DNA of 64,000 nt, from positions 367,846,001-367,910,000 of the forward strand of contig OZ024742.1 of assembly GCA_964016885.1 (NCBI GenBank), written 5' to 3'. Below, in pieces: positions 1 to 51,486 of this stretch. This DNA comes from Eledone cirrhosa. Its lineage: Eukaryota. Within the stretch, counting starts at the first letter, position 1. The number at the start of each line of letters is the position of its first letter. Position numbers and translations under genes: made by a program. Below the pieces are notes generated by a model. The model worked only from the letters and a program-made list of their open reading frames with translations. It had not been told where the DNA came from and did no database searches.

Positions 1-3000
1 CAATACCTGCTCCGGTGTGTCTTAATGCTGTCTCCAATGTCTGGTCAGTCCAACAGATCTAGCTGAACTGTCTTCTGACAATACCAGCTCCGGTGTGTTT
101 AATGCAGTCTCCAATGTCTGGTCAGTCCACCAGATCTAGCTGAACTGTCTTCTGACAATACCAGCTCCGGTGTGTCTTAATGCAGTCTCCAATGTCTGGT
201 CAGTTCACCAGATCTAGCTGAACTGTCTTCTGACAATACCAACTCCGGTGTGTCTTAATGCAGTCTCCCATGTCTGGTCAGTCCAACAGATCTAGCTGAA
301 CTGTCTTCTGACAATACCAGCTCCGGTGTGTCTTAATACAGTCTCCAATGTCTGGTCAGTCCACCAGATCTAGCTGAACTGTCTTCTGACAATACCAACT
401 CCGTTGTGTCTTAATGCAGTCTCCCATGTCTGGTCAGTCCAACAGATCTAGCTGAACTGTCTTCTGACAATACCAACTCCGGTGTGTCTTAATGCAGTCT
501 CCAATGTCTGGTCAGTCCACCAGATCTAGCTGAACTGTCTTCTGACAATACCAGCTCCGGTGTGTCTTAATGCAGTCTCCAATGTCTGGTCAGTCCAGCA
601 GATCTAGCTGAACTGTCTTCTGATAATACCAGCTCCGGTGTTTCTTAATGCTGTCTCCCATGTCTGGTCAGTCCAACAGATCTAGCTGAACTGTCTTCTG
701 ACAATACCAGCTCCGGTGTGTCTTAATACAGTCTCCAATGTCTGGTCAGTCCACCAGATATAGCTGAACTGTCTTCTGACAATACCATCTCCGGTATGTC
801 TTAATACAGTCTCCAATGTCTGGTCAGTCCACCAGATCTAGCTGAACTGTCTTCTGACAATACCAGCTCCGGTGTGTCTTAATGCAGTCTCCCATGTCTG
901 GTCAGTCCACCAGATCTAGCTGAACTGTCTTCTGACAATACCAGCTCCGGTGTGTCTTAATGCAGTCTCCAATGTCTGGTCAGTCCACCAGATCTAGCTG
1001 AACTGTCTTCTGACAATACCAGCTCCGGTGTGTCTTTATACAGTCTCCAATGTCTGGTCAGTCCAACAGATCTAGCTGAACTGTCTTCTGACAATACCAG
1101 CTCCGGTGTGTCTTAATGCAGTCTCCAATGTCTGGTCAGTCCACCAGATCTAGCTGAACTGTCTTCTGACAATACCAGCTCCGGTGTGTCTTAATGCAGT
1201 CTCCAATGTCTGGTCAGTCCACCAGATCTAGCTGAACTGTCTTCTGACAATACCAGCTCCGGTGTGTCTTAATACAGTCTCCAATGTCTGGTCAGTCCAC
1301 CAGATCTAGCTGAACTGTCTTCTGACAATACCACCTCCGGTGTGTCTTAATGCAGTCTCCAATGTCTGGTCAGTCCACCAGATCTAGCTGAACTGTCTTC
1401 TGACAATACCAGCTCCGGTGTGTCTTAATGCAGTCTCCCATGTCTGGTCAGTCCACCAGATCTAGCTGAACTGTCTTCTGACAATACCAGTTCCGGTGTG
1501 TCTTAATGCAGTCTCCAATGTCTGGTCAGTCCACCAGATCTAGCTGAACTGTCTTCTGACAATACCACCTCCGGTGTGTCTTAATGCAGTCTCCAATGTC
1601 TGGTCAGTCCACCAGATCTAGCTGAACTGTCTTCTGACAATACCAGCTCCGGTGTGTCTTAATGCAGTCTCCCATGTCTGGTCAGTCCACCAGATCTAGC
1701 TGAACTGTCTTCTGACAATACCAGCTCCGATGTGTCTTAATGCAGTCTCCAATGTCTGGTCAGTCCACCAGATCTAGCTGAACTGTCTTCTGACAATACC
1801 AGCTCCGGTGTGTCTTAATGCAGTCTCCAATGTCTGGTCAGTCCACCAGATCTAGCTGAACTGTCTTCTGACAATACCAGTTCCGGTGTGTCTTAATGCA
1901 GTCTCCAATGTCTTGTCAGTCCAACAGATCTAGCTGAACTGTCTTCTGACAATACCACCTCCGGTGTGTCTTAATACAGTCTCCAATGTCTGGTCAGTCC
2001 ACCAGATCTAGCTGAACTGTCTTCTGACAATACCAGCTCCGGTATGTCTTAATGCAGTCTCCTATGTCTGGTCAGTCCACCAGATCTAGCCGAACTGTCT
2101 TCTGACAATACCAGCTCCGGTGTGTCTTAATGCAGTCTCCCAATTCTGGTCAGTCCAACAGATCTAGCTGAACTGTCTTCTGACAATACCAGCTCCGGTG
2201 TGTCTTAATACAGTCTCCAATGTCTGGTCAGTCCAACAGATCTAGCTGAACTGTCTTCTGACAATACCAGCTCCGGTGTGTCTTAATACAGTCTCCAATG
2301 TCTGGTCAGTCCAACAGATCTAGCTGAACTGTCTTCTGACAATACCAGCTCCGGTGTGTCTTAATACAGTCTCCAATGTCTGGTCAGTCCACCAGATCTA
2401 GCTGAACTGTCTTCTGACAATACCAGCTCCGGTGTGTCTTAATGCAGTCTCCAATGTCTGGTCAGTCCACCAGATCTTGCTGAACTGTCTTCTGACAATA
2501 CCAGCTCCGGTGTGTCTTAATGCAGTCTCCAATGTCTGGTCAGTCCAACAGATCTAGCTGAGCTGTCTTCTGACAATACCAGCTCCGGTGTGTCTTAATG
2601 CAGTCTCCAATGTCTGGTCAGTCCAACAGATCTAGCTGAACTGTCTTCTGACAATACCAGCTCCGGTGTGTCTTAATGCAGTCTCCAATGTCTGGTCAGT
2701 CCACCAGATCTTGCTGAACTGTCTTCTGACAATACCAGCTCCGGTGTGTCTTAATGCAGTCTCCAATGTCTGGTCAGTCCAACAGATCTAGCTGAACTGT
2801 CTTCTGACAATACCAGCTCCGGTGTGTCTTAATGCAGTCTCCAATGTCTGGTCAGTCCAACAGATCTAGCTGAACTGTCTTCTGACAATACCAGCTCCGG
2901 TGTGTCTTAATGCAGCCTCCTATGTCTGGTCAGTCCAACAGATCTAGCTGAACTGTCTTCTGACAATACCAGCTCCGGTGTGTCTTAATACAGTCTCCTA

Positions 3001-6000
3001 TGTCTGGTCAGTCCAACAGATCTAGCTGAACTGTCTTCTGACAATACCAGCTCCGGTGTGTCTTAATACAGTCTCCAATGTCTGGCCAGTCCACCAGATC
3101 TAGCTGAACTGTCTTCTGACAATACCAGCTCCGGTATGTCTTAATGCAGTCTCCTATGTCTGGTCAGTCCACCAGATCTAGCTGAACTGTCTTCTGACAA
3201 TACCAGCTCCGGTGTGTCTTAATGCAGTCTCCCATGTCTGGTCAGTCCAACAGATCTAGCTGAACTGTCTTCTGACAATACCAGCTCCGGTGTGTCTTAA
3301 TGCAGTCTCCAATGTCTGGTCAGTCCACCAGATCTAGCTGAACTGTCTTCTGACAATACCAGCTCCGGTGTGTCTTAATACAGTCTCCAATGTCTGGCCA
3401 GTCCACCAGATCTAGCTGAACTGTCTTCTGACAATACCAGCTCCGGTGTGTCTTAATACAGTCTCCAATGTCTGGCCAGTCCACCAGATCTAGCTGAACT
3501 GTCTTCTGACAATACCAGCTCCGGTGTGTCTTAATCCAGTCTCCAATGTCTGGTCAGTCCACCAGATCTAGCTGAACTGTCTTCTGACAATACCAGCTCC
3601 GGTGTGTCTTAATGCAGTCTCCCATGTCTGGTCAGTCCACCAGATCTAGCTGAACTGTCTTCTGACAATACCAGCTCCGGCGTGTCTTAATGCAGTCTCC
3701 AATGTCTGGTCAGTTCACCAGATCTAGCTGAACTGTCTTCTGACAATACCAGCTCCGGTGTGTCTTAATGCAGTCTCCAATGTCTGGTCAGTCCACCAGA
3801 TCTAGCTGAACTGTCTTCTGACAATACCAACTCCGGTGTGTCTTAATCCAGTCTCCAATGTCTGGTCAGTCCAACAGATCTAGCTGAACTGTCTTCTGAC
3901 AATACCAGCTCCGGTGTGTCTTAATACAGTCTCCAATGTCTGGCCAGTCCACCAGATCTAGCTGAACTGTCTTCTGACAATACCAGCTCCGGTGTGTCTT
4001 AATGCAGTCTCCAATGTCTGGTCAGTCCACCAGATCTAGCTGAACTGTCTTCTGACAATACCAGCTCCGGTGTGTCTTAATCCAGTCTCCAATGTCTGGT
4101 CAGTCCAACAGATCTAGCTGAACTGTCTTCTGACAATACCAGCTCCGGTGTGTCTTTATACAGTCTCCAATGTCTGGTCAGTCCACCAGATCTAGCTGAA
4201 CTGTCTTCTGACAATACCTGCTCCGGTGTGTCTTAATGCTGTCTCCAATGTCTGGTCAGTCCAACAGATCTAGCTGAACTGTCTTCTGACAATACCAGCT
4301 CCGGTGTGTCTTAATGCAGTCTCCAATGTCTGGTCAGTCCACCAGATCTAGCTGAACTGTCTTCTGACAATACCAGCTCCGGTGTGTCTTAATGCAGTCT
4401 CCAATGTCTGGTCAGTTCACCAGATCTAGCTGAACTGTCTTCTGACAATACCAGCTCCGGTGTGTCTTAATGCAGTCTCCCATGTCTGGTCAGTCCAACA
4501 GATCTAGCTGAACTGTCTTCTGACAATACCAGCTCCGGTGTGTCTTAATGCAGTCTCCCATGTCTGGTCAGTCCAACAGATCTAGCTGAACTGTCTTCTG
4601 ACAATACCAGCTCCGGTGTGTCTTAATGCAGTCTCCAATGTCTGGTCAGTTCACCAGATCTAGCTGAACTGTCTTCTGACAATACCAGCTCCGGTGTGTC
4701 TTAATGCAGTCTCCCATGTCTGGTCAGTCCAACAGATCTAGCTGAACTGTCTTCTGACAATACCAGCTCCGGTGTGTCTTAATACAGTCTCCCATGTCTG
4801 GTCAGTCCAACAGATCTAGCTGAACTGTCTTCTGACAATACCAGCTCCGGTGTGTCTTAATGCAGTCTCCAATGTCTGGTCAGTCCAACAGATCTAGCTG
4901 AACTGTCTTCTGACAATACCAACTCCGGTGTGTCTTAATGCAGTCTCCAATGTCTGGTCAGTCCACCAGATCTAGCTGAACTGTCTTCTGACAATACCAA
5001 CTCCGGTGTGTCTTAATGCAGTCTCCAATGTCTGGTCAGTCCAACAGATCTAGCTGAACTGTCTTCTGACAATACCAACTCCGGTGTGTCTTAATGCAGT
5101 CTCCAATGTCTGGTCAGTCCACCAGATCTAGCTGAACTGTCTTCTGACAATACCTGCTCCGGTGTGTCTTAATACAGTCTCCAATGTCTGGTCAGTCCAC
5201 CAGATCTAGCTGAGCTGTCTTCTGACAATACCAGCTCCGGTGTGTCTTAATGCAGTCTCCCATGTCTGGTCAGTCCACCAGATATAGCTGAACTGTCTTC
5301 TGACAATACCAGCTCCGGTATGTCTTAATAAGTCTCCAATGTCTGGTCAGTCCACCAGATCTAGCTGAACTGTCTTCTGACAATACCAGCTCCGGTGTGT
5401 CTTAATGCAGTCTCCCATGTCTGGTCAGTCCACCAGATCCAGCTGAACTGTCTTCTGACAATACCAGCTCCGGTGTGTCTTAATGCAGTCTCCAATGTCT
5501 GGTCAGTCCACCAGATCTAGCTGAACTGTCTTCTGACAATACCAGCTCCGGTGTGTCTTTATACAGTCTCCTATGTCTGGTCAGTCCAACAGATCTAGCT
5601 GAACTGTCTTCTGACAATACCAGCTCCGGTGTGTCTTAATACAGTCTCCAATGTCTGGTCAGTCCACCAGATCTAGCTAAACTGTCTTCTGACAATACCT
5701 GCTCCGGTGTGTTTTAATGCAGTCTCCCATGTCTGGTCAGTCCACCAGATCTAGCTGAACTGTCTTCTGACAATACCAACTCCGGTGTGTCTTAATGCAG
5801 TCTCCAATGTCTGGTCAGTCCAGCAGATCTAGCTGAACTGTCTTCTGACAATACCAGCTCCGGTGTGTCTTAATGCAGTCTCCAATGTCTGGTCAGTTCA
5901 CCAGATCTAGCTGAACTGTCTTCTGACAATACCAGCTCCGGTGTGTCTTAATGCAGTCTCCCATGTCTGGTCAGTCCAACAGATCTAGCTGAACTGTCTT

Positions 6001-8477
6001 CTGACAATACCAGCTCCGGTGTGTCTTAATGCAGTCTCCCATGTCTGGTCAGTCCACCAGATCTAGCTGAACTGTCTTCTGACAATACCAGCTCCGGTGT
6101 GTCTTAATGCAGTCTCCAATGTCTGGTCAGTCCACCAGATCTAGCTGAACTGTCTTCTGACAATACCAGCTCCGGTGTGTCTTAATGCAGTCTCCCATGT
6201 CTGGTCAGGCCAACAGATCTAGCTGAACTGTCTTCTGACAATACCAGCTCCGGTATGTCTTAATAAGTCTCCAATGTCTGGTCAGTCCACCAGATCTAGC
6301 TGAACTGTCTTCTGACAATACCAGCTCCGGTGTGTCTTAATGCAGTCTCCCATGTCTGGTCAGTCCACCAGATCCAGCTGAACTGTCTTCTGACAATACC
6401 AGCTCCGGTGTGTCTTAATACAGTCTCCAATGTCTGGCCAGTCCACCAGATCTAGCTGAACTGTCTTCTGACAATACCAGCTCCGGTATGTCTTAATGCA
6501 GTCTCCTATGTCTGGTCAGTCCACCAGATCTAGTTGAACTGTCTTCTGACAATACCAGCTCCGGTGTGTCTTAATGCAGTCTCCCATGTCTGGTCAGTCC
6601 AACAGATCTAGCTGAACTGTCTTCTGACAATACCAGCTCCGATGTGTCTTAATGCAGTCTCCAATGTCTGGTCAGTCCACCAGATCTAGCTGAACTGTCT
6701 TCTGACAATACCAGCTCCGGTGTGTCTTAATACAGTCTCCAATGTCTGGTCAGTCCAACAGATCTGGCTGAACTGTCTTCTAACAATACCAGCTCCGGTG
6801 TGTCTTAATTCAGTCTCCAATGCCTGGTCAGTCCAACAGATCTAGCTGAACTGTCTTCTGACAATACCAGCTCCGGTGTGTCTTAATGCATTCTCCAATG
6901 TCTGGTCAGTCCACCAGATCTAGCTGAACTGTCTTCTGACAATACCAGCTCCGGTGTGTCTTAATACAGTCTCCAATGTCTGGTCAGTCCACCAGATCTA
7001 GCTGAACTGTCTTCTGACAATACCAGCTCCGGTGTGTCTTAATACAGTCTCCAATGTCTGGTCAGTCCAACAGATCTAGCTGAACTGTCTTCTGACAATA
7101 CCAACTCCGGTGTGTCTTAATGCATTCTCCAATGTCTGGTCAGTCCACCAGATCTAGCTGAACTGTCTTCTGACAATACCAGCTCCGGTGTGTCTTAATA
7201 CAGTCTCCAATGTCTGGTCAGTCCACCAGATCTAGCTGAACTGTCTTCTGACAATACCAGCTCCGGTGTGTCTTAATACAGTCTCCAATGTCTGGTCAGT
7301 CCAACAGATCTAGCTGAACTGTCTTCTGACAATACCAGCTCCGGTGTGTCTTAATACAGTCTCCTATGTCTGGTCAGTCCACCAGATCTAGCTGAACTGT
7401 CTTCTGACAATACCAGCTCCGGTGTGTCTTAATGCATTCTCCAATGTCTGGTCAGTCCACCAGATCTAGCTGAACTGTCTTCTGACAATACCAGCTCCGG
7501 TGTGTCTTAATACAGTCTCCAATGTCTGGTCAGTCCAACAGATCTAGCTGAACTGTCTTCTGACAATACCAGCTCCGGTGTGTCTTAATACAGTCTCCAA
7601 TGTCTGGTCAGTCCAACAGATCTAGCTGAACTGTCTTCTGACAATACCAGCTCCGGTGTGTCTTAATGCAGTCTCCAATGTCTGGTCAGTCCACCAGATC
7701 TAGCTGAACTGTCTTCTGACAATACCAGCTCCGGTGGGTCTTAATGCAGTCTCCAATGTCTGGTCAGTCCAACAGATCTAGCTGTACTGTCTTCTGACAA
7801 TACCAGCTCCGGTGTGTCTTAATACAGTCTCCAATGTCTGGTCAGTCCACCAGATCTAGCTGAACTGTCTTCTGACAATACCTGCTCCTGTGTGTCTTAA
7901 TGCAGTCTCCAATGTCTGGTCAGTCCACCAGATCTAGCTGAACTGTCTTCTGACAATACCAGCTCCGTTGTGTCTTAATGCATTCTCCAATGTCTGGTCA
8001 GTCCACCAGATCTAGCTGAACTGTCTTCTGACAATACCACCTCCGGTGTGTCTTAATGCAGTCTCCAATGTCTGGTCAGTCCACCAGATCTAGCTGAACT
8101 GTCTTCTGACAATACCAGCTCCGGTGTGTCTTAATGCAGTCTCCCATGTCTGGTCAGTCCAACAGATCTAGCTGAACTGTCTTCTGACAATACCAGCTCC
8201 GGTGTGTCTTAATACAGTCTCCAATGTCTGGTCAGTCCACCAGATCTTGCTGAACTGTCTTCTGACAATACCAGCTCCGGTGTGTCTTAATGCAGTCTCC
8301 AATGTCTGGTCAGTCCAACAGATCTAGCTGAACTGTCTTCTGACAATACCAGCTCCGGTGTGTCTTAATACTGTCTCCAATGTCTGGTCAGTCCAACAGA
8401 TCTAGCTGAGCTGTCTTCTGACAATACCAGCTCCGGTGTGTCTTAATGCAGTCTCCAATGTCTGGTCAGTCCAACAG
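1..8477. repeat. Tandem satellite A, 78-bp monomer, about 109 copies in window (continues past left edge)
   Basis: Consensus CAATACCAGCTCCGGTGTGTCTTAATGCAGTCTCCAATGTCTGGTCAGTCCACCAGATCTAGCTGAACTGTCTTCTGA recurs every 78 nt with few substitutions; each monomer has a stop in all six frames. Confidence 0.99.
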
Positions 8478-8541
8478 CTGACCTGAAAGTTAAATCACAC
8501 TCATTGTAAATATACTTTATTTGGTTTAGAGGAATACATCT
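8443..8541 (-). pseudogene. Degenerate terminal C2H2 zinc finger plus stop (RTE-like LINE ORF2 end or ZNF last exon); founder of satellite A
   Basis: Manual translation of minus strand 8541->8443 gives RCIPLNQIKYIYNECDLTFRSAVGLTRHWRLH*. This fits Y-x-C-x2-C-x3-F-x5-L-x2-H-x3-H with the first Cys as TAC, one change from TGC. Confidence 0.8.
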
Positions 8542-8627
8542 AGAAACGAAGGAACTATATGTCACTATACTTTCTCAAGTATTGAGTACAATATTTTATA
8601 TATTTTATCTCTATTATCACTAACACG

Positions 8628-8800
8628 AATTGGCAGTATTGGTAAAGGGTCAGACATGTTTTCCAGCATAGTTACGTCCATTTGCGATCCGAGTTCAAAT
8701 CCCGCCGAGGTTAACTTTGCCTTCCATCCTTACGTAGTTGATAAAATAAAGTACCAGTAATACAGTGGTATTTGCTGGCTTTGTGCCAAAAGTAGAAACA
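8628..8800 (+). mobile_element. tRNA-derived SINE with 15-bp target-site duplication
   Basis: A-box-like TGGCAGTATTGG and B-box GAGTTCAAATCCC; body shared with other copies in the window; ATTATCACTAACACG at 8613-8627 and 8801-8815. Confidence 0.9.
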
Positions 8801-8898
8801 ATTATCACTAACACGCATACACTCATTCATATAGGTGTGTGTGTATGATTGCATGTATGCATGTGTAGAGAGAGAAAGGACGGTTAGATGGATAGATA

Positions 8899-8960
8899 TA
8901 TTTATTTGCCACAAGGCCGCACAAGATATGGGGGCAATACAAGGACATATGGCGGGGATT
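8899..8960 (-). mobile_element. Short 3'-end stub of Tx1-type LINE in GATA repeat
   Basis: TTTATTTGCCACAAGG matches the 3' termini at 11008-11024, 13704-13720 and 61224-61240; flanked by TTAGAT(G/A)GATAGATA on both sides. Confidence 0.65.
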
Positions 8961-9128
8961 TTAGATAGATAGATAGAAAGATAGATAGGCTAGGAAGACG
9001 TGTATTATCATACATATGCATTAAATCGTAGGCGGGTTTATTGGAATTGAATGCCTTCTGCCATAAACTTCCAAATCTGCATATGTAATTTTCTTTGTTC
9101 TTGTGTAATTATGCGTAGGTACAGTTCT

Positions 9129-9130
<2 letters not shown>

Positions 9131-9191
<61 letters not shown>

Positions 9192-9208
9192 ATATATGTA
9201 TAGATATG

Positions 9209-9255
<47 letters not shown>

Positions 9256-9909
9256 TTATTTAAATATTTACTTAAATAGACATATCTATGTATATATTTA
9301 AATGTTATATAAATAATATATATATACATATATTATACATAGGTGTATCTATATTATATATATATATATATATTTATATTACATACATACACACATGCAT
9401 ACACACATGCATACATACACACATACATACATACATATGTGTAGACATATACACTCGTCTGTATATAAGTGTGTATGTGTTCCTATCAGTAAGTACAACA
9501 TTAAGTGATTGCTGATGAATGGTTACGTAAGTACCTTCATGTTTACATGTTGTTACTATATATGGTGATGAGTGTGTGTATATGTGAGGGAGGGTGTGTG
9601 TGTGAGAGAGAGGGTGGGTGTATCTGAGGGAGGGTGTATATGTGTGTGAGGGAGAGTGTGTGTGTGTGTGAGGGAGTGTGTGTGTTTGAGTATGTGTCAG
9701 TATCTGTGTATGTATGTGTAATTGCGTGAGTGTGTTTGTCAGTGTGTGTTTCAATATGTGTATGTTTGAGTATGTGTATGTGTGTGTGTCTGTCTGTCAC
9801 TCTCTCTCTCTCTCTCTCTCTCTATCTCTATCTCTCTCTCTCTGTCTCTCTCTATCTCTCTCTCTCTCTCTCTCACTCTATCTCTCTCTCTATCTATCTC
9901 TCTATCTCC

Positions 9910-10003
<94 letters not shown>

Positions 10004-10251
10004 CTCTCTCTCTCTGTATGAATATGTGTGTGTATATGTGTGAGTCTATATGTGAGTGTGTGTTTGTGTATGTTTGACTACCAGTCAGTCCGTGTTTGTG
10101 ACTGAGTGTGTATGTGTGTGTATCTGTGTGGGTATGCATGTGTGTGTTTGAGTATGAATATATGTGTGTGTATGTGTATGTGTGTGTGCGCGTAACTGTC
10201 GGTATGTGTGTGTATCTGTCGGTATATATATATATATATAGGTATCTTTCG

Positions 10252-10285
<34 letters not shown>

Positions 10286-10310
10286 GTCGGTGTATATATA
10301 TATGTGTCAG

Positions 10311-10353
<43 letters not shown>

Positions 10354-10385
10354 ATGTGTGTGTGTATGGTGTGTATCTGTCGGTA
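9131..10385. repeat. Compound microsatellite tract (TA)n/(TG)n/(CA)n/(CT)n
   Basis: Directly visible dinucleotide runs and degenerate variants. Confidence 0.95.
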
Positions 10386-10678
10386 TGTCTACAAGACTAT
10401 ATTAAATTGCTTTCCGGAATGTTAATCAATATTGAGACAATAAAATATTACAGACTATATAACAGAGAAGGAAGGGGAGAGGGAGGTGGGGGAGAGGAGA
10501 GAGTGGGAGGGGGTGGGGGGGAGATCATAGGAAAATATGTTGAACAACAACAACATCAAGATAGCTGTAGGAGATGAAGGAAGGAGATAGAGGAGGTGAG
10601 GGGGATAGAGGGGGGGAACAAAGGAAGAAAGAAGGGAAGAGAGGAAATAGATAAAGAAATAATTGAATAATGAATAAA

Positions 10679-10680
<2 letters not shown>

Positions 10681-10711
<31 letters not shown>

Positions 10712-10760
10712 GTACATATATACATTATATATACACATATATATATATATTTATACACAT

Positions 10761-10823
<63 letters not shown>

Positions 10824-10888
10824 CATATGAAATGTACTTTCATTTATATAAAAGGTCTATGGGTGAATCACCGCTAGTTATATAACTA

Positions 10889-10953
<65 letters not shown>
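10681..10953. repeat. (TA)n microsatellites
   Basis: Runs at about 10681-10820 and 10893-10953. Confidence 0.95.
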
Positions 10954-10958
<5 letters not shown>

Positions 10959-11000
10959 TATGTTATTATCTATATAGCTAGACAGATAGGTAGATAGATA

Positions 11001-13677
11001 TGTTGTTTTTATTAGCCACAGGGGCACAAAAGAAGTGGGCAAATACAAAGGGGGAAGTTTACATACAATAAAAACGTGTAAAATACTATCACAAATGCAA
11101 TTTAAAAAACAATCGATTTTCCCCAATAGGGGGAGACATTACATATGGGTAACACATACCCCCGAAAAAATGTGCAACCTTCATCTCCAGGAGTACGAAG
11201 AGTGAGTACTCCTTTCCTCTTTTCCTCTTTTTCCTCAACTTACAGGCTGATATAGAGAGAAGGCCCATTCACTCGGGCCATTCTCGCCACTTTCACCCAC
11301 CTTTCATAAAACTTGCTGGGGTACAGCACCTCTCTCTCCATCCTGGGGTACAGCACCTCTCTCTCCATCCTGGGGTAGAGCACCTCTCTCTCCATCCTGA
11401 TTCTTCTTCCAAAGTGGTATTTGAAAAAAAAGAATCAGTTGTTGGCCGGAGAGAAAGGTGTCTGACCTCAGCCCTTTTAACCTCGTCCACCATACAACCT
11501 CTTTCGCCATAGCTACCACACCGACTTTTGAAGGAGGGTGGTGGTTTGATCATGACAATGGACTCAGTGGTCAACCGGATTGGTCCCACCCGCGACAATA
11601 GTCCTTCTATATAGCCCCACGGGTCGGTAACGCCCGGGCAGTGTACGAATGCGTGCGCGACGGTTTCTTCGTCTCGCACGCATCTCGGACAGATCTTTTT
11701 CGAAAGGTCCCTGCTCGGGCGCCCGTGTCTGTAGAGCTTGTCTCGAACTGCTAGAGCTCCTCGGTAGCACTCCCAGGCCAGGGGTTTTGGAAGTTGTCCA
11801 TCGTCCCGGGCGGAAGGTCCTACCGAACAGACTGGCCAATTCATCTTCCTCTACGCCTAGAGTTTCTCCGAGCGCGTCGTCGCACTTGCTGCGGACCAAC
11901 CCTCTATATAATGACGAAGTGGAGTCTCCACTGATCGCCGGGTCCGCCTGCCAGAGGGCTGTGAGCGCCTGAGCACATTCGATGTGCCAGTCACCCATTT
12001 TCCTCGGTCTTTTCTTGACACAGCACTGCAGCTCGGTCAGCGAGACGAGTCGTGGGAAGGCTCGCCTCACGAACGGGGCCCACACCGGTTGTCCGGTGAG
12101 GAATACGTGGAGGTGCCGCAGTCTGAGCGCGTGTTTGCGCATCGTCAGCCACGGCTTCCCCAGCCCTCCGTTGGAAGGGTGTTGGCAGCAGATGGATCTT
12201 CTCACCAAAGGAGCCTGCTTCTTCCAAAGGAATTGGAAGGGCGCGCGCTCCATTTTGGTGAGCGTTTGGGCTGGACAAGGCACGACGGTCAAGCGGTAGT
12301 AGATGACGGACGCTATAAAAGTGTTCGCCACCTCCGCTCGACCTTTCAAGTATAGTTTTCACTGGGTGAGTGCAAACACCTTGGCCGTCACCTCGTTCCA
12401 GTTCTTCTCCACCTGGAGGTCCTGACCAAACCAGACCCTGAGCAGCTTTACCGGTCCTTCCGTCCAGCGTCCGACGACGGCATCGGAAGGCATCGGTTTG
12501 CCTCTCCACGATCCGAGTTGCAAACCGATGGACTTGTCCCCTCTTCAGCTTCGTTCCTGCGAACCTTTCTTATTCCTCCAGTAAGGTGCCGACTTCCTAG
12601 ATTTGCGAGGTGCTCGACACCATTACTGTCACGTCGACGGCGTAGGCCGACGCCGCATTCCACAGTCCTGGTTCCAGAGGGATGCCCTGCAATAGCTGCA
12701 ACTTCCGCAGTAGTGGCTCGAGAGTCAGAACGTAGAGAAGGGAGGAGAGAGGGCATTCCTATCGGATGGATCGCGTGATATGGAACGGCTCCGAGAGGTA
12801 GCCGTTCACCTTGACCCTTGAGCAGATGTTGCTGCTGTGCATTGCAGCAATCCAGCCCCTGAACAGGGGTCCGAAGCCTGCCGCCTCGAGCACCGCATCC
12901 AGGTAACCCTATCGAAAGCCTTAGACTGATCCAAGTTGATCAGGGCCCCACTCAAGTCGGGTTTACACCCTACCCTCTCTACGATGTATCGCATGAGGTG
13001 GAGGTTGTCGTGTATGGACCTGGTCGGGATTGCGCATGTCTGCGCTTCTCCCACCAGGTTTTCGACGACAAGCACCAGCTTCTTTGCCAAGAACTTGGCC
13101 AAAATCTGTAACTCTGTGTTTAGGAGAGTTATGGGCCGGAGGTTGCCTATGTCATCCCCCTTATTCTCGCCTTCGTGACTAGAGTGACTACGCCCTTGGT
13201 CACAGAGCTGGGAATTCTCCCGTTCTGTTGTCAGTTGCAGTAAACCGCTTCCAAGAGAACAGACAACAAGTCCGGCATTGCTACGTAAAATTCGTAGGGT
13301 AGACCGTCGAGACCTGGAGATTTGAGTTTGCCGCATTGGCTCAGCGCGTCCCCTATCTCAGCGGCCGAAATAGGCCTTTTGCAGAACTTCGCCTCGCTGT
13401 CCGAGAGTCGCGGTAGGCCGTCGAGGTATGGACCGAAATCCATAGCCCCTCCCGGCACGCCACCCTGCCCGAACAGTTGAGCAAAGTGCCGCTGAAAGGC
13501 CGCGCACATCTGCTTCGGCTCACGTATCATGCGTCCGTCCTGGTCCTTCAAAGACCGAATCGTGGACTTGTTGCCACTTTTCGCCTCCGTCGCTCGGGCC
13601 CAGCTAACAGCTTTGGCTCCCTCGTTACCCAGAGCACGTATTTTGCTTCTGAGAACGCAGCCCTCGTGCTTTGCGTA
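11001..13677 (-). mobile_element. 5'-truncated, frameshifted Tx1/L1-clade LINE (RT domain, C-terminal Cys/His motif, 3' UTR)
   Basis: Minus-strand ORF pieces: KSPGLDGLPYEFY, NLRPITLLNTELQILAK, LINLDQSKAFDRV, KGRAEVANTFIASVIYYRL, WECYRGALAVRDKL..CPRC..ETVAHAFVHC. AATAAA lies just before a TATC-repeat tail. Confidence 0.92.
11316..11396. repeat. 3 x 27-bp tandem repeat inside Tx1 ORF2 C-terminal region
   Basis: CTGGGGTA(C/G)AGCACCTCTCTCTCCATC three times; the homologous segment of the second Tx1 (about 61588-61615) is single copy. Confidence 0.95.
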
Positions 13678-13697
13678 GACAGACAGAGTGATAGATA

Positions 13698-13778
13698 TGT
13701 TTCTTTATTTGTCACAAGGGTGCACAATAAAAGGGACATTACAAGACGTGACGTCGGGTGTTGTACGTAACAAATGTT
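13698..13778 (-). mobile_element. 81-bp 3'-end stub of Tx1-type LINE with 12-bp TSD
   Basis: TGTTTCTTTATTTGTCACAAGGG terminus; GAGTGATAGATA at 13686-13697 and 13779-13790. Confidence 0.75.
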
Positions 13779-13782
13779 GAGT

Positions 13783-13831
<49 letters not shown>

Positions 13832-13916
13832 TAGATAGATAGTAGATAGATAGATAGATAGTAGATAGATAGTAGATAGATAGTAGATAGATAGATAGAT
13901 AGTAGATAGATATAGA
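13783..13916. repeat. (GATA)n microsatellite with GTA interruptions
   Basis: Directly visible. Confidence 0.95.
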
Positions 13917-14129
13917 CATATATGCCAAAAGTTCCATCGTTGGCATCTAGAGTAAGGACCAGATACTGAATTAGCTTGAGGTTCAAGAATTCCCAGCTTT
14001 GCAATATGCTGCCAAACCTGAGAGTCCTACATGTGGTGGGTGGAGATATTTTGGAGAAGAATCTCGACATTCTGCTATATAAGATGAACAAGATGACATG
14101 GTGTACAAGTATCAACAGTGACATATCCA

Positions 14130-14320
14130 TCAATAATCCAGAGCTCTTTTTGATTTCGATGTGTCTAACACACGTGGGCATGCCAACAAAGTCAGAAAAC
14201 AGCACAGCTCCCATGATTTTCGGAAACATTTTTTCACGTTCAGAGTTGCTGAATCAAGGAACAAACTACCTGCATCGGTTGTTAGCTGACGAGACACTGC
14301 ATCCTTTAAAACCTCCATGG
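14130..14320 (+). mobile_element. CR1-group LINE ORF2 C-terminal fragment; founder of satellite B
   Basis: Frame starting 14161 reads VSNTRGHANKVRKQHSSHDFRKHFFTFRVAESRNKLPASVVS*RDTASFKTSM, matching the CR1-type C-terminal signature TRGH..K......R..FF..RV...WN.LP..VV......FK. Confidence 0.88.
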
Positions 14321-17300
14321 AACAAACTACCTGCATCAGTTATTAGCTGCCGAGACACTACATCCTTTAAAACCTCCATGGAACAAACTACCTGCATCAG
14401 TTCTCAGCTGCCGAGAAACTACATCCTTTAAAACCTCCATGGAACAAACTACCTGCATCAGTTGTTAGCTGCCGAGACACTACATCCTTTAAAACCTCCA
14501 TGGAATAAACTACCTGCATCAGTTGTTACCTGCCAAGACACGGCATCCTTTAAAACCTCCATGGAATAAACTACCTGCATCAGTTGTTACCTGCCAAGAC
14601 ACGGCATCCTTTAAAACCTCCATGGAACAAACTACCTGCATCAGTTCTTAGTTGCCGATACACTGCATCCTTTAAAACCTCCATGGAACAAACTACCTGC
14701 ATCAGTTATTAGCTGCCGAGACACTACATCCTTTAAAACCTCCATGGAATAAACTACCTGCATCAGTTGTTAGCTGTCGAGACACAGCATCCATTAAAAC
14801 TTCTATGGAACAAACTACCTGCATCAGTTGTTAGCTGCCGAGACACTGCATTCTTTAAAACCTCAATGGAACAAACGACCTGCATGAGTTCTTATCTGCC
14901 GAGACACTCCATTGTTTAAAAACCCATGGAACAATCTACCTGCATCAGTTGTTAGCTGTCGAGATACAGCATCCTTTAAAAGCTCCATGGAACAAACTAC
15001 CTGCATCAGTGCTTAGCAGCCGAGAAACTCCATTGTTTAAAAACCCATGGAACAAACTACCTGCATCAGTTGTTAGTTGCCGAGACACTGCATCCTTTAA
15101 AACCTCTATGGAACAAACTTCCTGCATCAGTTGTTAGCTGTCGAGACACAGCATCCTTAAAACCTCCATGGAACAAACTACCTGCATCAGTTGTTAGCTG
15201 TCGAGACACTCCATCGTTTAAAACCTCCATGGAACAAACTTCCTGCATCAGTTGTTAGCTGCTGAGACACAGCATCCTTTAAACCCTCCATTGAACAAAC
15301 TACTTGCATCAGTTATTAGCTCCCGAGAAACTACATCCTTTAAAACCTCCATGGAAGAAACTACCTGCATCAGTTGTTAGCTGCCGAGACACAGCATCCT
15401 TTAAAACCTCCATGGAACAAACTACCTGCATCAGTTGTTAGCTGTCGAGACACAGCACCCTTTAAAACCTCCATGGAACAAACTACCTGCATCAGTTATT
15501 AGCTGTCGAGACACAGCACCGTTTAAAACCTCCATGGAACAAACTACCTGCATCAGTTGTTAGCTGCCGAGACACAGCATCCTTTAAAACCTCCATGGAA
15601 CAAACTACCTGCATCAGTTGTTAGCTGTCGAGACACAGCACCCTTTAAAACCTCCATGGAACAAACTACCTACATCAGTTGTTAGCTGTCGAGACACAGC
15701 ACCCTTTAAAACCTCCATGGAACAAACTACCTGCATCAGTTGTTAGCTGCCGAGACACAGCACCCTTTAAAACCTCCATGGAACAAACTACCCGCATCAG
15801 TTGTTAGCTGTCGAGACATAGCACCCTTTAGAACCTCAATGAAACAAACTACCTGCATCAGTTGTTAGCTGTCGAGACACTACATCCTTTAAAACATCCA
15901 TGGAACAAACTACCTGCATCAGTTGTTAGCTTCCGAGACACAGCACCCTTTAAAACCTCCATGGAACAAACTACCTGCATCAGTTCTTAGCTGTCGAGAC
16001 ACAGCATCCTTTAAAATATCCATGGAACAAACTAACTGCATCAGTTGTTAGCTTTCGAGACGCAGCATCCTTTAAATCCTCATGGAACAAACTACCTGCC
16101 TCAGTTATTAGCTGCCGAGACACTACATCATTTAAAACCTCCATGGAACAAACTACCTGCATCAGTTGTTAGCTGTCGTGACACTACATCCTTTAACACC
16201 TCGATGTAACAAACTATCTGCATCAGTTGTTAGATGCCGAGACACTGGACCCTTTAAAACCTCCATGGAACAAACTACCTGCACCAGTTGTTAGCTGTCG
16301 AGACACTGCATCCTTTAAAACCTCCATGGAACAAACTACCTGCATCAGTGGTGAACTGTCGAGAAACAGCATACTTTAAAACCCCATGGAACAAGCTACC
16401 TGCATCAGTTGTTAGCTGTCCAGATACAGCATCCTTTAAAACCACCATGGAAGAAACTACCTGCATCAGTTGTTACCTGCCAAGACACGGCATCCTTTAA
16501 AACCTCCATGGAACAAACTACCTGCATCAGTTGTTAGCTGACGAGACACTCCATCGTTTAAAACCGCCATTGAACAAACTACCTGCATCAGTTGTTAGCT
16601 ACCGAGACACAGCATCCTTTAAAGCCTCCATGGAACAAACTACCTGCATCAGTTGTTAGCTGCCGGGACACTACATCCTTTAAAACCTCCATTGAACAAA
16701 CTACCTGCATCAGTTGTTAGATGCCGAGACACTATATCCTTTAAAACCTCCATGGAACAAACTACCTGCATCAGTTGTTAGCTGCCGATACACTGCATCC
16801 TTTAAAACCTCCATGGAACAAACTACCTGCATCAGTTCTTAGCTGCCTAGACACTACATTCTTTAAAACCTCCATGGAACAAACTACCTGCATCAGATGT
16901 TAGCTGCCGAGACACTACATCCTTTAAAACCTCCATGGAACAAACTACCTGCATCAGTTGTTAGCTGCCGGGACACTACATCCTTTAAAACCTCCATGAA
17001 ACAAACTACCTGCATCAGTTGTTAGCTGCCGAGACACAGCATCCTTTAAAGCCTCCATGGAACAAACTACCTGCATCAGTTGTTAGCTGACGAGACACTA
17101 GCCGTCGACACACAGCATCCTTTAAAACCTCCATGGAACAAACTAGCTGCATCAGTTGTTAGCTGTCGAAACACTTCATTCTTTAACACCTCGATGGAAC
17201 AAACTACCTGCATCAGTTGTAAGCTGTCGAGACACTGCACACTTTAAAACCTCCATGGAACAAACTAGCTACATCAGGTGTTAGCTGTCGAGACACTACA

Positions 17301-20300
17301 TCCTTTAACACCTCGATGGAACAAACTACCTGCATCAGTTGTTAGCTGTCGAGACACTGCACCCTTTAAAACCTCCATGGAACAAACTACCTGCATTAGT
17401 TGTTTTATGTCCAGATACAGCATCCTTTAAAACCTCCATGGAACAAACTACCTGCATCAGTTGTTAGCTGTCGAGAGACTGCATCCTTTAAAACCTCTAC
17501 GGAACAGATTAACTTCATCAGTTGTTAGTTGCGATATATTGCATCCTTTAAAACCTCCATGGAACAAACTACCTGCATCAGTTGTTAGCTGCCGAGACAC
17601 TACATTCTTTAAAACCTCCATGGAACAAACTAACTGCATCAATTGTTAACTGCCGAGACACAGTATCCTTTAAAACCTCCATGGAACAAACTACCTGCAT
17701 CAGTTGTTAGCTGTCGAGACACTGCATCCTTTAAAGCCTCCATGGAACAAACTACCTGCATCAGTTGTTAGCTGCCGAGACACTGCATCCTTTAAAACCT
17801 CCATGGAACAAACTACCTGCATCATTTCTTTTATGTCCAGATACAGCATCCTTTAAAACCTCCATGGAACAAACTACCTGCATCAGTTGTTAGATGTCGA
17901 GAGACTGCATCCTTTAAAACCTCTACGGAACAGATTAACTTCATCAGTTGTTAGTTGCGATATATTGCATCCTTTAAAACCTCCATGGAACAAACTACCT
18001 GCATCAGTTGTTAGCTGCCGAGACACTACATCCTTTAAAACCTCCATGGAACAAACTACCTGCATCAGTTTTTAGCTGTCGAGACACAGCATCCTTTAAA
18101 ACATCCATGGAACAAACTACTTGCATCAGTTCTTAGCTGCCGAGACACTCCAACGTTTAAAATCTCCATGGAACAAACTTCCTGCATCAGTTGTTAGCTG
18201 CCGAGACACAGCATCCTTTAAACCCTCCATTGAACAAACTACTTGCATCAGTTATTAGCTCCCGAGAAACTACATCCTTTAAAACCTCCATGGAACAAAC
18301 TACCTGCATCAGTTGTTAGCTGCCGAGACACAGCATCCTTTAAAACCTCCATGGAACAAACTAACTGCATCAGTTGGTAGCTGTCGAGACACAGCACCCT
18401 TTTAAACCTCCATGGAACAAACTACCTGCATCAGTTATTAGCTGTCGAGACACAGCACCGTTTAAAACCTCCATGGAACAAACTACCTGCATCAGTTGTT
18501 AGCTGCCGAGACACAGCATCCTTTAAAACCTCCATGGAACAAACTACCTGCATCAGTTGTTAGCTGTCGAGACACAGCACCCTTTAAAACCTCCATGGAA
18601 CAAACTACCTGCATCAGTTGTTAGCTGTCGAGACACAGCACCCTTTAAAACCTCCATGGAACAAACTACCTGCATCAGTTGTTAGCTGTCGAGACACAGC
18701 ACCCTTTAAAACCTCCATGGAACAAACTACCTGCATCAGGTGTTAGCTGTCGAGACACTACATCCTTTAAAACATCCATGGAACAAACTACCTGCATCAG
18801 TTGTTAGCTGTCGAGACACAGCATCCTTTAAAACCTCCATGGAACAAACTACCTGCATCAGTTGTTAGCTGTCGAGACACAGCACCCTTTAAAACATCCA
18901 TGGAACAAACTAACTGCATCAGTTGTTAGCTGTCGAGACACTACATCCTTTAAAACATCCATGGAACAAACTACCTGCATCAGTTGTTAGCTGTCGAGAC
19001 ACAGCATCCTTTAAAACCTCCATGGAACAAACTACCTGCATCAGTTGTTAGCTGTCGAGACACAGCACCCTTTAAAACCTCCATGGAACAAACTACCTGC
19101 GTCAGTTGTTAGCTGTCGAGACACTACATCCTTTAAAACATCCATGGAACAAACTACCCGCATCAGTTGTTAGCTGTCGAGACACAGCACCCTTTAAAAC
19201 CTCCATGGAACAAACTACCTGCATCAGTTGTTAGCTGTCGAGACACTACATCCTTTAAAACATCTATGGAACAAACTACCTGCATCAGTTGTTAGCTGTC
19301 GAGACACAGCACCCTTTAAAACATCCATGGAACAAACTAACTGCATCAGTTGTTAGCTGTCGAGACACTACATCCTTTAAAACATCTATGGAACAAACTA
19401 CCTGCATCAGTTGTTAGCTGTCGAGACACAGCACCCTTTAAAACATCCATGGAACAAACTAACTGCATCAGCTGTTAGCTTTCGAGAAACAGCATCCTTT
19501 AAAACCTCCATGGAACAAACTACCTGCCTCAGTTATTAGCTGCCGAGACACTACATCCTTTAAAACCTCCATGGAACAAACTACCTGCATCAGTTGTTAG
19601 CTGTCGAGACACTGCATCCTTTAAAACCTCCATGGAACAAACTAGCTGCATCAGTTGTTAGCTGCCGAGACACAGCATCCTTTAAAATCTCCATAGAACA
19701 AACTACCTGCATCAGTTGTTAGCTGCCGAGACACTGCATCCTTTAAAACCTCCATGGAACAAACTACCTGCATCATTTCTTTTATGTCCAGATACAGCAT
19801 CCTTTAAAACCTCCATGGAACAAACTACCTGCATCAGTTGTTAGATGTCGAGAGACTGCATCCTTTAAAACCTCTACGGAACAGATTAACTTCATCAGTT
19901 GTTAGTTGCGATATATTGCATCAGTTATTACCTCCCGAGAAACTACATCCTTTAAAACCTCCATGGAACAAACTACCTGCATCAGTTGTTAGCTGCCGAG
20001 ACACAGCATCCTTTAAAACCTCCATGGAACAAACTACCTGCATCAGTTGTTAGATGTCGAGACACAGCACCCTTTTAAACCTCCATGGAACAAACTACCT
20101 GCATCAGTTATTAGCTGTCGAGACACAGCACCCTTTAAAACCTCCATGGAACAAACTACCTGCATCAGTTGTTAGCTGCCGAGACACAGCATCCTTTAAA
20201 ACCTCCATGGAACAAACTACCTGCATCAGTTGTTAGCTGTCGAGACACAGCACCCTTTAAAACCTCCATGGAACAAACTACCTGCATCAGTTGTTAGCTG

Positions 20301-35300: not shown

Positions 35301-35716
35301 TGCCGTGACACAGCATCCTTTAAAGCCTCCATGGAACAAACTACCTGCATCAGTTGTTAGCTGTCGAGACACTAGCCGTCGAGACACAGCATCCTTTAAA
35401 ACCTCCATGGAACAAACTACCTGCATCAGTTGTTAGCTGTCGAGACACTGCATCCTTTAAAACCTCCATGGAAAAAACTACCTGCATCAGTTGTTAGCTG
35501 CCGAGACACTACTTCCGTTAAAACTTCCATTAAACAAACTACCTGCATCAGTTGTTAGCTGCCGAGACACTACATCCTTTACGAACCTCCATGGAACATA
35601 CTACCTGCATCAGTTGTTAGCTGCCGAGACACTACATCCTTTAAAACCTCCATGAAACAAACTACCTGCATCAATTGTAAGCTGTCGAGACACTGCACAC
35701 TTTAAAACCTCCATGG
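14258..35716 (+). repeat. Tandem satellite B, 61-bp monomer, first forward block
   Basis: Consensus GGAACAAACTACCTGCATCAGTTGTTAGCTG(T/C)CGAGACAC(T/A)(G/A)CATCCTTTAAAACCTCCAT repeated with period 61. Confidence 0.99.
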
Positions 35717-50200: not shown

Positions 50201-50249
50201 CCTCCATGGAACAAACTACCTCTATCAGTTGTTAGCTGTCGAGACACTG
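41206..50249 (+). repeat. Satellite B, second forward block with about 2.8-kb higher-order duplication
   Basis: Forward monomers resume at AGGTGTCGAGATACAGC. Identical variant strings are offset by 2821-2823 nt (ORFs 45458/48279, 46187/49010). The array ends at GAGACACTG 50249. Confidence 0.98.
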
Positions 50250-50261
50250 TACACAATAATT

Positions 50262-50298
<37 letters not shown>

Positions 50299-51126: not shown

Positions 51127-51486
51127 TAGAAAGGATGAATATAAAATGAAAGTGCTTTTGTTAAAAAAGGAATTTATTAGGTATTGACATATGTTTCTGT
51201 AACAGACCGAATACCTATGTATCGCTGCTTGCGTAATCATATAATGTTAGCAAGTATTCGATAGCAAATGTATAATCAGTTGTCACTTCTTCAGAGATTT
51301 TGGATAAAACTTTATCCAAAATCTCTGAAGAAGTGACAACTGATTATACATTTGCTATCGAATACTTGCTAACATTATATGATTACGCAAGCAGCGATAC
51401 ATAGGTATTCGGTCTGTTACAGAAACATATGTCAATACCTAATAAATTCCTTTTTTAACAAAAGCACTTTCATTTTATATTCATCC

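Follow-up and report, generated by a model that had tools for sequence, protein, structure and literature searches.

LINE-related satellite arrays in a satellite-rich distal chromosomal domain of the octopod Eledone cirrhosa

Two satellite arrays and a short repeat in LINE coding ends

The window, by which we mean the whole 64,000-nucleotide stretch analysed (contig OZ024742.1, positions 367,846,001 to 367,910,000, chromosome C3), contains two satellite arrays, A and B, with an L1/Tx1-like LINE between them. Satellite A (78-bp unit, minus strand) occupies positions 1..8477 and runs leftward past the window edge to -39732, giving 618 copies in 48 kb, of which 108.7 copies lie in the window. Thus, the first-pass annotation, which had counted 3, at least 109 and about 590 copies for the three repeats of this locus, was right within the window, but A is really far larger. 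An exact read contig covers 8449-8656 at the edge of the array, so the assembly is backed by reads, and read depth is about 4,000 in the array versus 5-9 in the unique flank. The A junction has 411 exact matches genome-wide and all 411 are local, making this a satellite private to one locus.

At the edge of array A lies its founder (8411..8518, minus strand), a remnant of about 108 bp made up of about 40 bp of unique sequence and the first unit, which is a decayed C-terminal C2H2 zinc-finger coding fragment of the ORF2 of a LINE that we take to be RTE-like from its motifs, there being no named homolog among its matches. The founder region has 38 dispersed matches at 75-87% identity, and most of the 19 homologs fetched run on to a stop codon and an (ATGT)n tail; RVT_1 and zf-C2H2 domains are present in these homologs, in agreement with a retroelement-derived founder. 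A splice-acceptor or host-exon origin was ruled out, as the flank is RTE-like. The array had been drawn from the end of a minus-strand ORF; the array is real, but no ORF end exists there. LINE sequence is found on the 5' side of A only, and the far end adjoins another satellite, with neither an RTE stop nor a tail. Identity to the family majority is 84% in the founder and 92% in other copies, whereas the units of A diverge by only 2.4% from their own majority, and the satellite was therefore probably amplified post-insertion. By homology, A can be classed as a TE-derived satellite, with a monomer related to a dispersed RTE-like LINE in a long head-to-tail array.

Satellite B (plus strand, 14258..50249) comprises about 590 units of 61 bp in 36 kb, with CATG bounding the unit and LINE sequence at both edges of the array. 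On the left is the C-terminal part of ORF2 of a 5'-truncated CR1-like LINE (14127..14257, plus strand), where homology begins only at 14127 and reaches 90-96% to dispersed copies; on the right, the last unit is joined via CACTG microhomology to the 3' terminus and (ATT)n tail (50250..50297, plus strand), as judged by comparison with intact copies. Because the right end joins the CR1 terminus and tail at 50250, the array is internal to one CR1 copy and not, as had been suggested, an external extension rightward from an ORF end, although its strand and size were described correctly. No target-site duplication around the host copy was evident by eye, and a 153-aa plus-strand frame from 13970 was ruled out as the frame of the LINE. 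The array majority is identical to the single unit of the CR1-like LINE, and the window array holds 250 of the 19,434 exact junctions genome-wide; in addition, each of three further samples with the same species label yielded about 700 raw reads that contain the 61-bp 'goes back' junction. The array includes an inverted block (35722..41209, minus strand) whose left breakpoint is a CCATGG palindrome, and a 15-bp-duplication variant recurs at nine sites, which shows kb-scale block copying. Other copies of the LINE carry RVT_1 upstream (Pfam), and those of its homologs that have a name are RT proteins from birds and turtles. With an RT ORF that has CR1-type relatives and a microsatellite tail, the host appears to be a CR1 element. 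B, too, is a TE-derived satellite, its monomer homologous to a dispersed CR1-like LINE.

The intervening Tx1-like LINE (10995..13704, minus strand) is 5'-truncated and frameshifted, retains RT and zf-RVT parts (Pfam RVT_1 and zf-RVT, in translation), and belongs to a family with 1,865 candidate copies in the genome. The three-copy repeat reported near the end of its ORF2 was found at 11316..11399 (minus strand) as an in-frame 27-bp VNTR of 9 codons, with 3.1 copies and CAG microhomology. Elsewhere, 1-5 units were found at 24 other loci, some of which overlap; the 3-unit form occurs in 17 of the 24, a proportion inflated by the 3-unit query, and some Tx1 loci hold roughly 30-40 units as judged by span. 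On these unit counts, the triplet fits a family-wide VNTR inherited from the parent family and not a local event; as the 3-unit form is common across the family, the proposed three independent local amplifications are not upheld. The three units do share one position class, all lying no more than about 200 nt from the end of a LINE ORF2. The suggested involvement of microhomology also agrees with the data, in that short direct repeats bound every unit (CATG for CR1, CAG for Tx1, and approximately CTG for A); a 47-bp RTE unit is bounded by CAGCTGGT.

Chromosomal distribution of satellites and CR1 arrays

In the 760 kb around the window, 77% of the sequence is satellite (taking array E to run unbroken from one sampled point to the next), in 11 arrays with a median gap of 3.6 kb. 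The 5.8 kb separating A and B is thus ordinary here, and while the two arrays point outward as annotated, such an orientation has a 1-in-4 chance of arising. At blind sample midpoints on C3, satellite was found in 10 of 17 within the last 29 Mb (350-378 Mb) and in 0 of 18 in the interior. Satellite midpoints were also frequent at the ends of C1 (6/8) and C2 (6/7), and were scarce at the C4 ends (0/5), the C3 left end (0/5) and on smaller chromosomes (1/7). A roughly 25-Mb stretch near the C3 end is therefore a patchwork of unrelated satellite arrays, and the 6-kb 'nursery' envisaged for the locus gives way to a domain of tens of Mb; a promoting effect of location is retained in so far as position matters, but at that far larger scale. 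The GC content of the domain is 39.5% versus 35.7%, a comparison confounded by the satellites themselves. For the 269-kb satellite C, a genome search that scored the best 40 of its 261 candidates, every one of them local, yielded no founder. The 39-bp satellite E had a by-eye likeness to the CR1 3' terminus, but was rejected as a derivative, since comparison gave nothing at E<1e-3 and neither of its ends adjoins a LINE.

By exact-match patterns, which miss diverged copies, the 61-bp repeat is in tandem at 799 CR1 loci and single at 5,096. The same LINE-end segments have been amplified repeatedly, as supported by these 799 loci and by two more loci of the RTE segment, where the unit differs from that of satellite A. 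Among the matches listed (the first 100 places), the distance to a chromosome end is at most 40 Mb for 80 of 92 tandem loci on C1-C3, the three largest chromosomes, but for 1 of 11 single loci (p=3e-7). On C1, the first 32 Mb hold 12 tandem and 56 single loci, and no tandem locus was found from 31.4 to 332 Mb, though 80 single copies of one lineage occur in 32-150 Mb. Thus, for C1-C3, the CR1 fragment of a genome-wide TE is expanded almost only in terminal copies. However, about 700 of the 799 arrays are on C4 and smaller sequences, with a cluster at 47-51 Mb of C4; since these sequences hold most CR1 arrays, yet the C4 ends scored 0/5, the positional rule is not simply 'distal'.

Origin and spread of the tandem junction

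A tree of CR1 flanks (27 array-bearing and 31 single copies) rejects a single clade of array-bearing copies (AU p=2e-57) and forces at least 6 state changes, so array-bearing copies are polyphyletic, which argues against a VNTR inherited from a master and spread by retrotransposition. The 'X' lineage, with 1,814 single copies, has only 47 X-type junctions, in about 14 regions, whereas 100 loci have an X end behind a non-X junction. Of 22 such X-end loci fetched, 10 were unscorable, and 11 of the 12 scorable ones have X flanks on both sides of the non-X junction, the remaining one having a non-X 5' flank. Tract lengths vary among these mosaics, and there are two donor types. Reciprocal patches were seen at L249 and at L248, the latter 79 kb from the X array L245. 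A donor patch between recipient flanks, with variable tracts, is the pattern of ectopic (interlocus) gene conversion, which is the mechanism we infer. In-place duplication or homogenisation also occurs, because L124 and L128 each have a pair of identical units that share private variants, and the X junction of L245 lies within X flanks. The window array itself lies in a non-X host, so that import is not demonstrable for B.

Our main reading, to which we assign a probability of about two in three, is that A and B are ORF2-end pieces of RTE-like and CR1-like LINEs, amplified after insertion by recombination in the ~25-Mb distal domain. The process would start from LINE fragments that hold, genome-wide, short direct repeats 27-85 bp apart, between which a rare microhomology-mediated duplication may make the first tandem junction. 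In CR1, this junction would be copied from arrays into single-unit copies by ectopic gene conversion, in which synthesis-dependent strand annealing on a tandem donor could yield two units. Unequal exchange and block copying would lengthen the arrays, almost only near giant-chromosome ends and on smaller chromosomes; by analogy, the satellite domain may be linked to high recombination. The stronger proposal, that the tandem junction is an infectious unit, born a few times in CR1 and passed by conversion to hundreds of scattered single-unit copies in different subfamilies, with some arrays reaching tens of kb, stands at even odds.

A related but unlikely possibility is that extrachromosomal circles released from arrays carry the junction patch into single CR1 copies through homologous re-integration, perhaps with rolling-circle amplification. 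Circles would yield the same X/non-X mosaics, and have been proposed beside conversion for Drosophila Rsp-like satellites (PMC7403614), but in the two-unit loci L253, L255 and L263 the donor alleles cover less than one unit, and L248 is suited by its nearby donor. Alternatively, the domains may be low-recombining heterochromatin, possibly pericentromeric, in which arrays are kept while duplications arise everywhere and are lost elsewhere. The direct adjoining of arrays of 150-270 kb, the internal CR1 cluster on C4, and the expansion of LTR-derived arrays at Lathyrus centromeres (PMC7004042) are in line with retention. However, C1 and C2 are affected at both ends, monomers change at nearly every sample point, unlike a single centromeric family, and two Octopus species are reported to recombine more toward the ends of their chromosomes (PMC13669787), which counts here in so far as they are relatives. 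We hold such retention to be improbable as well.

Slippage or template switching by RT early in target-primed reverse transcription, whereby LINE 3' ends would be inserted already duplicated, was an earlier explanation for the arrays. All three units do lie near the 3' end, the Tx1 VNTR is carried by its family, and 7 of 93 CR1 loci have 2-3 copies of the 125-136-bp 3' terminus. Those terminal duplications never exceed 3 copies in the sample, though, and slippage leaves the positional restriction of the 61-bp arrays unexplained; a foreign junction flanked by X on either side would call for two switches, and A was amplified after its founder had decayed, such that we give slippage little credence for A and B. 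A small cis-acting locus in the spacer is very improbable, for although A and B diverge from it and B is the longest CR1 array seen, the gap is typical of the domain, nothing but SINE, microsatellite and Tx1 sequence lies in the spacer, and elsewhere there are CR1 arrays with no fewer than 148 and 49 units, as well as an RTE array of 26 kb. A general LINE-3'-end route to satellites, also put forward, is not borne out: of 40 unselected monomers, 1 derived from the three LINE 3' ends tested, where their abundance alone predicts about 0.2, numbers too small to demonstrate enrichment, with a 646-kb, unmasked library that covers only three LINE families well.

How satellites are born and spread to new sites is an open question, as intermediates are usually missing. 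Here, about 5,900 copies of one CR1 LINE span the whole series from one unit, through two and a few, to hundreds; subfamily markers record donor and recipient, and the chromosome interior is an internal control. A single assembly thus makes it possible to count how often junctions are born, how long conversion tracts are, how far away donors lie and what effect the chromosomal domain has. If the tandem junction is infectious, a retroposon family could become a genome-wide minisatellite network, and each CR1 copy would, by its array status, act as a readout of how recombination behaves locally, in a lineage for which genetic maps are few.

Comparison with known systems

For O. vulgaris, a term search of the main text of a repeat paper did not find the word 'satellite' (PMC13282606). 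No direct report of junction spread among LINE copies, or of such arrays in cephalopods, was found in the literature within scope, which mostly did not extend to subscription papers. In Lathyrus, the LTR retrotransposon that is the source of satellites is reportedly Ogre. As here, short in-element arrays grow only in a favourable chromosomal region, but in Lathyrus the element already contains the arrays, which then expand at primary constrictions, a situation that the Tx1 VNTR fits better than A or B (Vondrak et al., PMC7004042). Human TE-derived tandem repeats also have TE parts as seeds, hotspot TE regions, and flanking short direct repeats that can start them; unlike here, the accessible text of that study describes no genomic hotspot and attributes the hotspots to repeats pre-existing in the master (Ahmed and Liang 2012, PMC3389668). 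The monomers of chicken HinfI (CR1) and of the cetacean common satellite and PROsat (L1) resemble LINE ORF2 or 3' ends, as do A and B, but are presented in the accessible text as single families recognised by similarity, without a 2-to-~590-unit series in dispersed copies (PMC9659126).

The spread of Rsp-like repeats into 1.688 clusters in Drosophila is similar in that a rare microhomology-born junction is common to many loci; interlocus conversion or eccDNA has been proposed as the means, with an abundant homologous repeat as the seed (Sproul et al. 2020, PMC7403614). In that case a satellite invades another satellite, whereas here it is single-copy LINE insertions, at hundreds of loci, whose own sequence becomes an array. 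In Xenopus and other frogs, the terminal 20-30 Mb of chromosomes are satellite-rich, with some arrays from parts of SINE/tRNA-V and LINE/CR1, and, as in Eledone, a TE is present genome-wide while its fragment is expanded only in subtelomeric copies (Bredeson et al. 2024, PMC10794172). An extended subtelomere of this type, satellite-rich against a poor interior, appears at the C3 right end and on C1 and C2, but not at the C3 left end or the C4 ends. The frog study, unlike this one, has a linkage map; conversely, subfamily-marker evidence for junction transfer is available here and is not described for frogs in the accessible text (PMC10794172). The present case differs in its invertebrate host and in that not every chromosome end is affected, and points to a frog-like satellite patchwork at giant-chromosome ends in an octopod genome.

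Origin of the three tandem repeats

The window (G000:C3:367,846,001-367,910,000, on chromosome C3 of assembly G000) belongs to a 379-Mb chromosome, whose end is 11 Mb away, in a genome of 3.0 Gb. Its SINE motifs and microsatellite content look octopod. TRF recovered the three tandem repeats reported by the first-pass annotation: satellite A, an array of 78-bp units (1-8477); a triplet of 27-bp units (11316-11399); and satellite B, an array of 61-bp units (14258-50249). The assembly is supported by an exact contig over 8449-8656 and an array read depth ~500-800x that of the unique flank, both from public reads that are probably of the same sample as the assembly, and by three further samples, each with ~700 raw reads that contain the 61-bp unit-to-unit junction. 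A long inverted repeat (arms ~120 bp) was spotted by eye at 51240-51480.

The proposed LINE origin of satellites A and B was borne out. For satellite A, 38 dispersed places match window 8411-8518 at 75-87%, and in the 19 copies retrieved this segment codes for C-terminal C2H2 fingers, with a stop codon and then an (ATGT)n tail coming next in most of them. The finger part is joined to an RT domain in two database homologs, and from its motifs we take the source to be an RTE-like LINE. Identity to the family majority is 84% for the founder, as against an average of 92% for other copies, and the 610 units diverge only 2.4% from their own majority; satellite A therefore expanded long after the insertion had decayed. 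The array is 48 kb long, and at its far end there is no RTE tail but a 38-bp satellite. All of the exact satellite A junctions in the genome (411/411) are local. The annotation's idea that a LINE-end segment is used repeatedly found agreement in the separate amplification of the RTE segment on sequences C10 (11 units) and C1719 (~26 kb, with RTE sequence flanking both sides), where the unit is 47 bp long and has an 8-bp direct repeat at its bounds. At L304 (C10:40.06 Mb), the 47-bp array passes into 43 copies of a 27-bp internal deletion derivative.

The CR1-like LINE to which satellite B belongs can be recognised by homology from window 14127 onward. Ordinary CR1-like copies have a single 61-bp unit, with CATG at its bounds, ~30 nt upstream of the stop, and the right end of satellite B is joined to the LINE terminus and an (ATT)n tail, so the array is internal to one LINE copy. 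It contains a 5.5-kb inversion starting at a CCATGG palindrome, and a marker variant recurs at 9 sites within it. Genome-wide, 799 CR1 loci have a 5' anchor and a tandem junction, versus 5,096 with a single unit, and there are 19,434 exact 61-bp junctions, with 250 in the window. Among the first 30 tandem loci, unit numbers run from 2 upward, and five arrays extending past the retrieved locus have 28, 37, 38, 63 and at least 148 units.

The Tx1-like 27-bp unit is in frame with CAG at its bounds, and 1-5 units are present at 24 other loci, the 3-unit form being included in 17, a count in which the query is itself biased to 3 units and some loci overlap. Further loci carry up to ~30-40 units. 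The triplet is thus a VNTR of the whole family, and not the third local amplification previously proposed. Three related Tx1-like 3' termini (8895-8960, 10995-11050 and 13697-13750) each adjoin a GATA-type microsatellite, possibly reflecting a target preference, and a second Tx1-like element at ~61540-63910 is 70% identical to that at 11-13.7 kb.

A satellite-rich chromosome region

The sequence left of satellite A holds a 38-bp array of 3.3 kb, arrays of 45-, 21-, 20-, 22- and 39-bp units (up to 150 kb), and a 66-bp array at G000:C3:367,533,923-367,802,946 (L141-L160, L096-L105, L181) that, at 269 kb, is the largest seen; no founder was found for this candidate centromere. An abundant SINE-like repeat supplied, from its 5' end, the unit of an 18-kb, 45-bp array (L191-L192, C3:367,420,288-367,438,453); this unit matches 44 retrieved loci. 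Eleven arrays cover 77% of the 760 kb around the window, if the 39-bp array is treated as unbroken between sampled points. With a median of 3.6 kb for the gaps between arrays, the 5.8-kb spacing of satellites A and B is unremarkable, and the notion of a 6-kb satellite nursery falls away. Related 48-bp arrays, from an unclassified dispersed repeat in 27 loci, also occur 17 Mb apart at L206 and L218 (C3:357 and 374 Mb).

In blind samples, scored by whether the midpoint falls in complex satellite, satellite was found in 10/17 at C3 350-378 Mb, 0/18 in the C3 interior, 0/5 at the C3 left end, 6/8 at C1 ends, 6/7 at C2 ends, 0/5 at C4 ends and 1/7 on smaller chromosomes. On C1-C3, 80/92 tandem CR1 loci (copies with more than one unit) are within 40 Mb of an end, versus 1/11 single copies, all of one variant (p=3e-7). 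No tandem CR1 locus was found at C1 31.4-332 Mb, although single copies are at least as dense in that stretch (44 in 32-49 Mb; 80 copies from one lineage in 32-150 Mb). The three interior tandem loci of C1 have two units each. Of the earlier suggestion that the locus promotes amplification, a strong regional effect stands, but not at the 6-kb scale. A simple end-distance rule is opposed by CR1 arrays clustered internally at G000:C4:47-51 Mb, where the C4 ends (L348-L352) are satellite-poor, and by ~700 tandem CR1 loci on C4 and smaller sequences, whose blind samples are satellite-poor. This C4 pattern may mark the scar of a fusion, or else a fault in scaffold order.

LINE ends are not the main source of satellites, judging from sequence matches as far as a 646-kb library reaches. 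Of 40 unselected monomer families, only one, a CR1 61-mer array on C2, derives from any of the three LINE 3' ends, versus ~0.2 expected from the ~0.5% of blind sequence that these ends make up, a count compatible both with enrichment and with none. Other dispersed repeats are matched by 5/40, at least two being SINE-like, and the remainder have no match in three or more library loci.

Probable spread of the CR1 junction between copies

One common clade for all array-bearing copies is rejected (AU p=2e-57) by a tree built from flanks alone, with 27 array-bearing and 31 single CR1 copies; duplicates were left out, as were loci whose 5' homology is short or whose array ends are open. The array label is unclustered (72/500 shuffles were as low), with bootstrap not settled. 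The X subfamily, defined by marker sites just upstream of CATG, has 1,814 single copies but only 47 own-type junctions in ~14 regions, whereas an X end lies behind a non-X junction at 100 loci. All 22 retrieved loci of one X variant have X 3' flanks (22/22), and where the 5' flank is sufficient (12/22), it is X in 11 and non-X in 1. The non-X tracts range from under one unit to entire arrays and are of two donor types. Reverse mosaics are present at L249 and at L248, the latter at a distance of 79 kb from the X array L245.

RT slippage, one cause put forward by the first-pass annotation, is disfavoured, since X flanks either side of a non-X junction would need two template switches and satellite A grew after its founder had decayed. 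A duplicated CR1 3' terminus, found at 7/93 loci, all X lineage (L273, L279, L284, L254, L258, L269, L272), may be an RT product, perhaps by re-priming; it consists of 2-3 tandem copies of 125-136 bp, never more. In-place duplication cannot place foreign alleles at a junction, but identical units sharing private variants (L124, L128) and the own-type junction of L245 imply that new junctions or homogenisation arise too. Subfamily markers point to movement of the tandem state between dispersed LINE copies, a result additional to the original proposal; we infer that break repair would copy tandem donor sequence into a single-unit CR1 copy.

Comparison with known systems

LINE-end satellites (PMC9659126) and TE hotspots for tandem repeats (PMC3389668) are already known, and we found no open-access report of a tandem junction that spreads from one LINE copy to others across subfamilies. 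Extended subtelomeres in frogs have a similar satellite domain, with TE-fragment expansion confined to terminal copies (PMC10794172), and the model for spread of a shared junction in Drosophila Rsp-like satellite resembles the spread of the CR1 junction (PMC7403614).
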